Shown in pieces: positions 56,801 through 59,800 of a DNA stretch of 64,000 nt. Source of the stretch: Proteobacteria bacterium UBA5122 (GTDB lineage Bacteria > Pseudomonadota > Gammaproteobacteria > Tenderiales > Tenderiaceae). The position numbers are program-made. The stretch is from positions 4,726-68,725 of the forward strand of contig DHYU01000007.1 of the NCBI GenBank assembly GCA_002415485.1, written 5' to 3'. The first letter of the stretch is position 1. Every line of letters starts with the position of its first letter.

Positions 56801-59800
56801 GGTTATCAGGAGGTGGGCGCCAACGGCCAGCGTTATTACGTGTTGCAGGAGGCGACGGCCGACGGCCAGATGTTGCTGGTCAAGAATGCGACCACGTTTG
56901 AGCAGCGCGAGGAAAACATCCAGATCGCGCTGATCGCCAGCGTGGTGGTGGCCGTGCTGCTGGCCTGGTGGCTGGGTGCGAGCCTGGCCGGGCGCGTCAT
57001 CTCGCCGGTGTCGCAGTTGGCTGAGCAGTTGAGCGGCTTTCGCCCCAACCAGCGCCAGGTGAATCTGGCGGCGCAATACGCCGAGGATGAAGTGGGGCAG
57101 TTGGCGGCCACCTTTGAAAACTATCTGCAGCAGATCGAACAGTTCATCGAACGCGAACAGGCCTTCACCGCCGATGCCAGCCACGAGTTGCGCACGCCGC
57201 TGGCCGTGATCAGTGGCGCCGCCGAGTTGTTGCTCGAAACCCCCGGCCTGCCGGAGCGCAGCCTGCGCCAGGTCGAACGCATCGCCCGCGCCGCCGAACG
57301 CATGTCGCAGATGCTGGAGATCCTGCTGATGCTGGCGCGCGAGACCAGTCGTTCGCCCGACACCGCCTACGAGACCTGTGATGTGGCCGACCTGTTGCTG
57401 GAGGCGGTCGAACAACACCGGCCCTTATTGCACGACAAACAGGTGCAGCTCAAGACACAGCTGCTGGTGGCGCAGCCGATCGTCAGTTCACGCACCGCGC
57501 TGATCATCGTGCTGAACAACCTGCTGCGTAATGCGGTGAACTACACCCAGCACGGTGAGATCATCGTCACCCTCGATGGCCTCAGCGTGAGCATTCGCGA
57601 TACCGGCCAGGGCATCGCCGCCGATGAGCTGAGCCACCTGTTCGACCGCCACTACCGGGGGCGCAACAGTCAGCACAGCAGCGGCAGCGGTATCGGGCTG
57701 TCGATCGTCAAACGCATCTGCGACCGCCTCGGTTGGCAGATCAGCATCGAGAGCCAGGTCGGCGAGGGCACCGTGGTGCATCTACAGCTCGCCAGCGCGG
57801 CCCCGGCAACGCAATAACTGTCTGAAATCGCGTGCTTTGTGCACGGGTTCACAAAAAAAATCCCATCTTAACGAAATCTTGACGTTTGCTTGACGCGGGC
57901 TTGACGCGTCGGTTGCTACCTTTTCCTACAAGCTAGGCCCAAAAGTGGTTGGCGGGCAGCGAAGTAGGAGAGACACCATGAGCATAGCAAGCGCCGAAGT
58001 AAACCTGGCACGTTTGACCGACACCAGCGTTGAGGTGGAGTTGGTCGCCGCCCACGACCGGTTTCAGCCGCAATACCGCGAGCAGGTCGAGCAGTTTGTG
58101 CGTGCGGTGTTTCGTCATGCCTACGGTGCCCGCATCAACCACTTCTTGCCCTATCTGTTGAGCATGCGCCAACAGGGCAAGATCCTCGCCGCCCTCGGCA
58201 TCCGCCCCGCCCGCGAAGGTGAACTGTTCCTCGAGGTCTATCTGGACCAGCCCATCGAAAGCGCCCTTGCCAGTCAGGCCCGTCGCCCGGTGGCGCGCGA
58301 CCAACTGGTCGAGGTCGGCAATCTGGCCTCGGCCCACGGCGGCGGCGCCAAGGCCCTGATCATCACGCTGACCGCCTACCTCAACGGCGCCGGTTTTGAC
58401 TGGGCGGTGTTCACCGCCACCCGTCAGGTACGCAACAGCTTTGTCAAACTCGGCATCGAACTGATCGACCTGGCCGAGGCCGATAAGTCCCGCCTCGGTG
58501 ACGCCCAAAACGCCTGGGGCAGCTATTACGAACAGGCGCCACGCGTGGTGGCCGCCAATGTCGCCCAGGCCACCGTTGCCGTGTTGGCGGCCATGCGCCA
58601 GCAACGCCTATTTCCTGATGCCCATCAGCTGTGGTGCGATGCCCATCGTGCCGGTCGCCAAGGTGACCTGTGGACACCGCCGGGCATCATGAGTGGCACC
58701 TTGCCACAACACCTGTTTGATCACACCGCTGATTACATCGATGGCAGCGGCATATGAACACCGCCACCCATAACCCCTTGTTACAGGCACTGGCGTATCA
58801 CGCCGGGCAGCGCCCACGCGCCATCGCGCTGGAAGGTGAGTGCGTCAGCCTGAGCTACCAATGCCTGCAAGAAGAGGTCGAGGAGACTGCTGCGATCCTC
58901 TACGCCAACGGCATTCAAGCGCATGGCATCAATCGCATTGCGATCATGATGGACAACCAACCGGCCTGGGTGATCTTCGATCTGGCCTGCCAACAGCTCG
59001 GTGTGACCCTGGTGCCGATCCCGGCCTTCTTCACCCCGGCACAGGTCACACACACCGTGGCCGATGCCGGCATCAGCATCATCCTCTGTGATCAAAGCCC
59101 CATGGTCGCCGAACAATTGCAGGCGGTGTTTCCACAGCAGGACCTGCGGCCGCTGGGGCGCGTTGGTGGTCACGGTAGCTGGATGATGACCCTGCCATCG
59201 CTGGTGCAGGCGCCGCTGGCCAACGTGGCCCGTATTACCTACACCTCCGGCACCACCGGTGATCCGAAGGGCGTGTGTCTGTCGGCAGACAACATGTCGA
59301 GCGTCGCCCAATCGCTGGCCGAGGTGATTCACGTCAATCAAACCGATCGGCATCTGTGTCTGTTACCGCTGGCCGTGTTGCTCGAAAACATCGGCGGCGT
59401 CTACGTGCCCTTATTGTCAGGCGCGACCTGTGTGCTGCCATCAATGGCCAGCATCGGCATGCAAGGCGCGGCCGGTTTGTCGCCACAAACGATGTGCGAC
59501 ACCATCCGCCGCCATCAACCCAGCACACTCATCATGTTGCCGCAGATGTTGCAGGCCCTGGTGATCATGGTGCAGGCCGGTTTTCAACTGCCGGCCAGCC
59601 TGCGCTTCATCGCCGTTGGTGGTGCGCCGGTGTCCTTGGAGTTGTTGGTGCAGGCAGAGGGGCTCGATATCCCCGTGTATGAGGGGTATGGCCTGTCCGA
59701 ATGTGGTTCAGTGGTCGCCGTCAATACGCCAGCCTCGCGCCGCCCCGGCAGCGTTGGCCGTGTGTTGCCGCACCTGCAGCTTAAATTTGCTGACGATGGC

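Follow-up and report, generated by a model that had tools for sequence, protein, structure and literature searches.

At the pstS promoter of Escherichia coli and at the promoters controlled by PmrA, the -35 element is replaced by the box of the regulator, with PhoB at pstS spanning positions -41 to -25 (PMC10570014). The PmrA box has the form XTTAAY-N5-XTTAAY, and its TAA bases are contacted by T187, N188, V192, and H195 of the protein (PMC10570014). Cyanobacterial SphR recognizes a Pho box in which an 8-bp repeat, CTTAACCT, is present in three or four tandem copies with 3-bp linkers between them (PMC1906773). In the cryo-electron microscopy structures of M. tuberculosis PhoP, two or three tandem dimers (4PhoP-TAC and 6PhoP-TAC) are observed on promoters with several boxes; there the proximal dimer extends over the -35 position, and the contact made by sigma region 4 is displaced by it (PMC11825685). 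Described here is an array of four direct repeats at positions 57867-57910 in a 64,000-nucleotide stretch of DNA from Proteobacteria bacterium UBA5122 (contig DHYU01000007.1; the whole stretch is hereafter referred to as the window). The array lies between the genes of a two-component system (TCS) and a five-gene operon at 57978-62449. With a probability of roughly 0.8, it is the operator of that TCS at the operon promoter, where dimers of the phosphorylated response regulator (RR) would activate transcription.

Organization and conservation of the array

The heptamer CTTGACG occurs three times on the forward strand, at 57878-57884, 57889-57895, and 57900-57906, with a phase of exactly 11 bp, and CTTAACG, which differs at one position and keeps the phase, adds a fourth copy at 57867-57873. 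The sequence from 57860 to 57912 is atcCTTAACGaaatCTTGACGtttgCTTGACGcgggCTTGACGcgtcgg. The initial annotation of this DNA had described three copies of CTTGACG in exact 11-bp phase. The copies are real and the phasing is confirmed, but each of the coordinates given for them (57877, 57888, and 57899) was one too low, and with the CTTAACG unit the array is fourfold rather than threefold. The distance of about 70 bp to the first cluster gene was correctly estimated, as 71 bp separate the last repeat from the ATG of gene 1 (57978). The units are listed below together with their positions relative to the predicted transcription start, on a numbering in which the TACCTT of the putative -10 element is taken as -12 to -7.

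57867-57877, forward strand: unit R1, CTTAACGAAAT, predicted -62 to -52; the most conserved unit, its spacer included
57878-57888, forward strand: unit R2, CTTGACGTTTG, predicted -51 to -41
57889-57899, forward strand: unit R3, CTTGACGCGGG, predicted -40 to -30
57900-57910, forward strand: unit R4, CTTGACGCGTC, predicted -29 to -19; R3 and R4 together occupy the place of the absent -35 element

On the same numbering the core hexamers would lie at -62 to -57 (R1), -51 to -46 (R2), -40 to -35 (R3), and -29 to -24 (R4).

The heptamer CTTGACG as such is not over-represented in the window, where seven copies were found against 9.1 expected, three of the seven being those of the array. When the window was shuffled 100 times with its dinucleotides preserved, the phased triple was never recovered, even at a tolerance of up to three mismatches, and the array is therefore considered to be real and non-random. 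With the window left out of its construction, a position weight matrix (PWM) reaches 41 bits at 57867, and elsewhere in the 64 kb it rises above zero only in shifted registers of the same array. With a two-unit PWM, the best other score in the 64 kb is 10.9, compared with 19-22 for the array. A wider search for the motif had been proposed in the initial annotation; run over the 64-kb window, it revealed no copy beyond the array at 57867 and none upstream of the RR gene. A search of 57700-58100 against Rfam gave no match. The only weak off-target PWM matches in the window come from a low-GC island at ~15500-18900, which has a GC content of 37-40% compared with 55-62% on both sides and was possibly acquired horizontally.

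Orthologous promoters were collected with a profile of gene 1, which yielded 11 genome loci and 16 metagenome loci (27 in all), and four more loci (L030-L033) were reached through orthologues of the RR. All of the organisms are represented by uncultured metagenome-assembled genomes (MAGs) or by metagenome contigs. Records of the exact gene 1 protein come solely from the source assembly and from a handful of short contigs; its nearest relatives, from Gammaproteobacteria, Chromatiales/Chromatiaceae, and Ca. Tenderia, are 49-63% identical. Four.TT.A units at exact 11-bp spacing are present within 400 bp upstream of gene 1 in 27 of the 27 loci, and the array is likewise found in L030-L033.

Thirty distinct promoter sequences were aligned on unit 1. 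The TT pair and the A are present in 30/30 in all four units and the C in 27-30/30, such that the consensus of a unit is n-TT-n-AC-r. The fourth base of the core is the least conserved (A>G>T>C), and the base following the core is a purine in most of the 30 promoters. Unit R1 is nearly invariant together with its spacer (CTTAAC-G/A-AAAT), its TT, A, and C each occurring in 30/30. At least two direct repeats with a core of 6-7 bp and a spacing of 10-11 bp are thus seen in the window and in every one of the 30 promoters. The mean pairwise identity is 0.98 for the core columns, 0.55 for the other columns of the array, and 0.29, the random level, for the upstream flank, which indicates that the conservation is selective and does not reflect recent common ancestry. 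Given that copy number and phase never vary, an unstable tandem repeat is excluded.

The spacer after R3 tends to GGG (columns +30 to +32) and that after R4 to CCC (columns +41 to +43), a tendency by which R4 is flanked, in the window and in some of the other loci, by the arms of a short inverted repeat. In the window this repeat, GACGCG/CGCGTC, is GC-rich and extends over 57892-57910. It was rejected as an element in its own right: it is present in 16 of 30 loci, is mostly 4 bp in length, and is inconsistent across lineages.

Promoter anatomy

The features downstream of the array are as follows.

57914-57922, forward strand: putative extended -10 element, with TG at 57914-57915, one base, and TACCTT at 57917-57922, assigned from conservation in the alignment
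57928-57930, forward strand: predicted transcription start, 6-8 nt past the -10 hexamer
57966-57980, forward strand: Shine-Dalgarno sequence AGGAG (57966-57970) and the ATG of gene 1 (57978)

The 6 bases after unit 4 lead into the aligned motif T-T-G-y-T-A-n-n-n-T, where T at column +50, A at +51, and T at +55 are shared by 30/30 promoters and G at +48 by 27/30. From this pattern we infer an extended -10 element, and the end of the R4 heptamer lies 10 bp from the conserved TAnnnT. No sigma70 -35/-10 pair was detected in a consensus scan of 55400-58200. The place expected for a -35 element is occupied by CGCGGG in the window and by C-r-n-G-G-G in the consensus, both of which are unlike TTGACA. 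It had been suggested in the initial annotation that TTGACG resembles the -35 hexamer of a sigma-70 promoter. This part of the annotation can be discarded: none of the units is separated from a usable -10 by 16-18 bp, and the TTGACG sequences of R3 and R4, at 21 and 10 bp from it, cannot act as a -35. The resemblance is incidental, since the G is the least conserved position of the core and this lineage has a G there. A sigma54 reading of the TTGCT sequence was also rejected because the GG at -24 is absent and TT is conserved there instead.

R3-R4, the proximal site, takes the position of the -35 element, and ~10 bp lie between its end and the -10, as the latter is positioned by conservation. 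This site covers -40 to -24 and thereby agrees within one base with PhoB at pstS. Both the pstS promoter and the array are built from direct repeats of a 7-bp core with a 4-bp spacer, both have an 11-bp phase and no -35 element, and both would be read by head-to-tail winged-helix dimers, those on the array being predicted. Strong Pho promoters are likewise multi-box. The two differ in the core (CTGTCAT for PhoB, nTTnACr here) and in the target, which is a biosynthetic-type operon rather than a phosphate gene, and the proteins of the adjacent TCS are not PhoB/PhoR equivalogs. As only the promoter geometry agrees, and neither the core nor a PhoB/PhoR pair is found, assignment of the array as a proteobacterial Pho box was rejected. 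A structural precedent is provided by the PhoP complexes with four repeats and two dimers, which differ in organism, sigma factor, and box sequence; for the array, such an arrangement is deduced from sequence only.

Many of the orthologous 5' leaders (equivalent to 57930-57977 in the window) contain a short GC hairpin, the sequence of which differs by lineage (for example, GGCAC-ACAGG-GTGCC or AGCGC-AAAA-GCGCT). A hairpin of the 5'-untranslated region past the predicted start was tried as an element and not retained, the mean z value being -0.93 versus -0.50 for a control region and that of the window +0.39. RNAalifold returned no consensus structure for the 5' leaders, and the leader in the window is without a hairpin.

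The adjacent two-component system

Two genes upstream of the array encode the TCS.

55848-56522, forward strand: RR of the OmpR/PhoB family, 224 aa (Pfam Response_reg 3.8e-30, Trans_reg_C 1.5e-17)
56522-57817, forward strand: sensor histidine kinase (HK), 431 aa, the predicted cognate kinase (Pfam HAMP-HisKA-HATPase_c)

The start of the HK gene overlaps the stop codon of the RR gene, a gap of 160 bp separates the HK gene from the operon, and all of the genes concerned are on the forward strand. The linked regulator carries a receiver and a Trans_reg_C winged-helix domain and is indeed, as had been annotated, a member of the OmpR/PhoB family. Its phospho-acceptor is Asp 52 by alignment, and its recognition helix is PPDSDSIRAHMHTLR. 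In comparisons with the NCBIfam equivalogs (heavy-metal, HprR, PmrA, QseB, PhoB, and others), neither the RR nor the HK reached a cut-off. The best match of the RR is to the heavy-metal RR subfamily (193 versus a cut-off of 279), and the scores, with cut-offs in parentheses, are 146.5 (296.2) for PhoB, 152.9 (334.2) for PhoR, 159 (330) for PmrA, and 112.6 (314) for PmrB. Because both proteins fall below every named equivalog cut-off, the TCS is left unnamed. The 62-bp gap between a small open reading frame (ORF) at 55432-55785 and the RR gene contains a perfect 10-bp stem, GTTCCCACGC-tccg-GCGTGGGAAC, at ~55800-55823 with no T-run. The RR gene of locus L023 is closely preceded by the end of the contig (positions 1-300), which is made up of short tandem repeats with GTCAGCA... 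and CTACTGCATTCTGA... as units.

The closest solved structures to the RR are those of DrrD (1KGS) and PmrA/BasR (4S04/8JO2), and PmrA/BasR is its closest DNA-bound solved relative (4S04/4S05, 8JO2). PmrA residues T187, N188, V192, and H195 align with S, D, A, and H of the RR, a correspondence that fits a specificity (TT-n-AC) akin to, yet distinct from, that of PmrA. The recognition helices of the two proteins have the pattern H-x-H-x-L-R in common, and the motif PPDSD-x-[LI]R-A-H-[MI]-H-x-LR is conserved among the RR orthologues. In L011 and L033, R-A-H is replaced by R-S-H and the half-sites are mostly of the TTCAC type; this is a weak hint of protein-DNA covariation in two lineages that are possibly related.

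The PmrA boxes of pbgP/arnB, ugd, and pmrC share with the array the hexamer-N5-hexamer layout, the TT-A core, and the overlap with the -35 position. The PmrA box, however, has two half-sites that lie ~4 bp closer to the -10, whereas the array has four units with an invariant C as the last core base. Identity with a PmrA/BasR box was rejected: the spacing agrees, but the core is nTTnAC with a variable fourth base, there are four copies, and the regulator is not a PmrA orthologue. The SphR box has the same CTTAAC core, the same 11-bp phase, and three to four copies, the phoA-nucH promoter of SphR having four. It differs at positions 7-8 (CT rather than r, n) and belongs to another phylum, regulon, and signal, its place being upstream of phosphate-acquisition genes, a context that the array does not have. 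The array would work like a PhoB, PmrA, or SphR box, yet it lies outside the PhoB and PmrA regulons and probably outside that of SphR.

The RR and HK genes immediately precede the operon in the window, and they do so as well in L003-L006, L008-L011, L013, L020, L022-L025, L030, L032, and L033, and the order RR-HK-operon is kept in most loci for which enough upstream sequence is available. One additional gene is found between the HK gene and the array in L010 and L025. In L001 and L017, an insertion of unrelated genes sets the HK gene apart from the operon, and it is the operon that the array accompanies; the array is thus part of the operon promoter and not of the 3' end of the kinase gene. 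The order is permuted to operon-RR-HK in L031, again with the array upstream of gene 1, such that the TCS would be autoregulated. In a search for RR orthologues that was independent of the operon, the operon adjoined in four of six sampled contigs, in two gene orders.

Arrays are also found next to the RR gene itself. Three loci contain a second four-unit array, CTTAACGAAAG CTTCACATTTA TTTGACATCTT GTTAACGACGA, ~200 bp upstream of that gene.

L009, 3507-3550: second array
L008, 3546-3589: second array
L024, 1507-1550: second array

Its presence suggests autoregulation in this lineage. A possible small ORF lies between the second array and the RR gene in these three loci. Locus L034 contains an RR-HK pair with no operon within 7 kb. 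On its minus strand, at 6752-6795, is an array, ATTAACGAAAT CTTGATGTTTT CATAACCTTTT TTTGATGCGCT, that displays the R1 signature and is followed, after 6 nt, by TATGTT. This array is positioned between the RR gene and a divergent cytochrome-b-type gene and faces the latter with the same -10 geometry as at the operon. A degenerate array with TTG-T-TAACCT is visible at 8990-9060 of L034, just after the HK gene where the operon usually starts, and is followed by a HipBA-like module and genes with FGE-sulfatase domains. In ~373 kb of fetched DNA, the PWM scores above 12 at these arrays only, with one exception in a coding region. The exception, a minus-strand match of 12.3 inside the TPR gene of L030, was taken as chance.

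The initial annotation had proposed that the phased repeats are the site of the adjacent RR and that they form an activator site overlapping the promoter. At the level of sequence, the first proposal is supported by the 30/30 conservation and by the linkage to the RR in two gene orders, and the second by the PhoB-like class II position with respect to the conserved -10.

Proposed mode of action and alternative explanations

The four units at 57867-57910 may be regarded as two tandem sites, R1-R2 and R3-R4, each of which would bind one head-to-tail dimer of the phosphorylated RR. Since R3-R4 lie at about -40 to -24, the place of PhoB at pstS, the proximal dimer would substitute for the contact between sigma70 region 4 and the -35 element and recruit RNA polymerase in a class II-type manner. 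The distal pair, R1-R2, probably nucleates or stabilizes binding cooperatively, as suggested by the fact that R1 is the most conserved unit. By analogy, the mechanism would not be new but a further case of the replacement of a -35 element by tandem dimers in the style of PhoB, PmrA, and PhoP.

Several observations weigh against activation by the adjacent RR. No copy of the array precedes the RR gene in the window, where the 62-bp gap holds the hairpin alone. In approximately eight loci there is no TCS within the available 4-6 kb upstream, and adjacency is thus not universal; moreover, one RR with 64% identity is an orphan without an array nearby. The -10 element has been assigned from conservation alone, and its hexamer in the window, TACCTT, is weak, with the TG as the sole additional promoter signal. 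Finally, the CTTAAC core resembles the boxes of the same family (SphR, PmrA), and another paralogue could bind to it.

The last point leads to the possibility, which is considered unlikely, that the array is a true winged-helix regulator site whose protein is not the adjacent RR but another member of the OmpR/PhoB family, such as a phosphate or envelope-stress regulator, with its gene elsewhere. The loci in which the TCS is not adjacent would fit such a regulator, as would the occurrence of CTTAAC at an 11-bp phase in the core of the SphR Pho box and its closeness to the PmrA box. The same direction is indicated by two distant versions of the operon, L036 and L038 (gene 1 identity 44-47%), in which a different OmpR-family pair is located at the operon end. 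The RR of that pair is 34-40% identical, and its HK contains 2CSK_N/HAMP_PhoQ domains. The promoters of these operons carry a two-half-site box of the PmrA type with CTTAAG-type half-sites, TTTAAGattacATTAAG or CTTAAGactggTTTAAG, and 10 nt further on is TACAGT or TAGGCT.

L036, ~5930-5975, and L038, ~5950-5990: PmrA-type boxes, TTTAAG-N5-ATTAAG and CTTAAG-N5-TTTAAG

In these versions the same regulatory logic recurs with another regulator. A third, GC-rich version of the operon, L037, has neither a TCS nor a box. Against a regulator from elsewhere stand the RR orthologues that were found independently and adjoin the operon in two gene orders, the arrays that accompany the RR gene either without the operon (L034) or in addition to that of the operon (L008, L009, and L024), and the failure of the RR and HK to qualify as equivalogs of PhoB/PhoR or PmrA/PmrB.

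It is quite improbable that the adjacent RR binds to the array but represses the operon, or acts both ways, by occlusion of the promoter. The array covers -62 to -19 and would block RNA polymerase at a constitutive promoter, and repression by members of this family is known (PhoP-TRC, PMC11825685). In neither the window nor the consensus, however, does a -35 element lie 16-18 bp from the -10, and such a promoter should have little strength by itself. The geometry, furthermore, equals that of the activator-dependent PhoB and PmrA promoters, and the inclusion of the TCS within the operon in L031, L036, and L038 fits positive autoregulation.

Finally, although TTGACG matches TTGACA at five of six positions and TRF reports a period-11 repeat of 1.9 copies, it is highly improbable that the repeats are -35-like hexamers of stacked promoters or a functionless 11-bp repeat arising by chance or slippage, given the variable G, the 21- and 10-bp distances of R3 and R4 from the -10, the negative promoter scan, the lack of the pattern in any shuffle of the window, and the presence of four copies with diverged spacers in all 30 lineages, which is unlike an unstable tandem repeat.

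The operon and its putative product

The target of the proposed activation is the operon of five genes, in which neighbours overlap by 4 or 14 bp or are 9 bp apart.

57978-58757, forward strand: gene 1, PF12261 'thermostable hemolysin' family (Pfam 4.9e-62)
58754-60331, forward strand: gene 2, AMP-forming acyl-CoA ligase (Pfam AMP-binding 2e-60), overlapping gene 1 by 4 bp
60318-60965, forward strand: gene 3, haem-oxygenase-like iron-containing redox enzyme, PF14518 (Pfam 2e-32)
60975-61778, forward strand: gene 4, short-chain dehydrogenase/reductase (Pfam adh_short 3.9e-55; NCBIfam PRK09072, 308 bits, above the cut-off of 238)
61775-62449, forward strand: gene 5, TPR-repeat protein (Pfam TPR families) with an N-terminal hydrophobic, signal-like segment

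Among the proteins of the cluster, that of gene 3 is the best conserved (61-80% identity), and gene 5 is syntenic in all complete loci. The AlphaFold (AF2) model of the gene 1 protein has a mean pLDDT of 83.5. Its top Foldseek matches are the CoA-dependent acyl-homoserine lactone (AHL) synthases RpaI, BjaI, and MesI, the classical synthases LasI, EsaI, and TofI, and the N-acyl-amino-acid synthase FeeM, with E values of ~1e-6 to 6e-5 and TM values of ~0.5 on the query and 0.53-0.70 on the target. The protein is thus predicted to adopt a LuxI/FeeM-like GNAT acyltransferase fold. A comparison of the gene 1 profile with the sequences in the PDB gave no significant match. In light of the AHL synthase/FeeM-like fold and the acyl-CoA ligase encoded next to it, the name 'hemolysin' is probably misleading.

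Taken with the neighbouring ligase, the predicted fold suggests that an acyl group would be moved from an acyl-CoA onto an amino compound, with oxidation and reduction as later steps, and the product could be a lipid or a signal. A literature search returned nothing on the PF12261 cluster or its regulation. A speculative and rather doubtful idea is that the array is the switch of a self-contained small-molecule circuit, in which the gene 1 protein, with its AHL/N-acyl-amino-acid synthase fold of the CoA-dependent kind, would act with the acyl-CoA ligase, the haem-oxygenase-like oxidase, and the reductase to produce an acylated signal or a surface lipid, the HK would sense the product or the altered state of the envelope, and the array would drive further synthesis. 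If this were true, the circuit would be a positive loop akin to quorum sensing with a TCS in place of the LuxR receptor. Such a circuit is compatible with the repeated association of the operon with unrelated OmpR-family systems, two in number, that have phased boxes of their own, and also with the inclusion of the TCS within the operon in some lineages.

The operon is widespread in uncultured sulfur-cycle/electroactive Gammaproteobacteria (Chromatiales, Ca. Tenderia, Halothiobacillaceae, and Kaarinaea), and operons of this kind appear always to be under tight, putative activator control. The array provides a precise cis-element, defined by consensus, phase, and position, together with a one-operon regulon, for a TCS that has neither a name nor a cultured host. 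It could be used as a search profile for the regulon in MAGs, and with its regulator it could serve as an inducible promoter/regulator pair for heterologous expression aimed at finding the product of the operon.

A CRP-type palindrome upstream of the array

One further feature is located between the HK gene and the array.

57838-57853, inverted repeat: CRP-type palindrome, TGTGCACGGGTTCACA, 9/10 match to TGTGA-N6-TCACA

A run of eight A residues (57853-57860) directly follows the palindrome and precedes the array. The 'A-rich leader' of the initial annotation has to be reinterpreted accordingly: this run lies upstream of both the array and the predicted transcription start and is therefore promoter DNA rather than leader, forming the flank of the palindrome. 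The palindrome likewise explains an apparent fifth half-site, TTCACA, 20 bp upstream of R1, which is better read as half of the CRP-type palindrome. CRP sites of class I are centred at -61.5, -71.5, -82.5, and -92.5, and the centre of the palindrome, at approximately -83.5 from the predicted start, is close to -82.5. At the same offset from unit 1, a match of at least 8/10 is present in 10 of 29 distinct promoters (background P 0.0015). The CRP-type site is probably a second input in this lineage and in about a third of the others. The best matches to the CRP consensus are those of L023 (10/10) and of L003, L013, and L020 (9/10).

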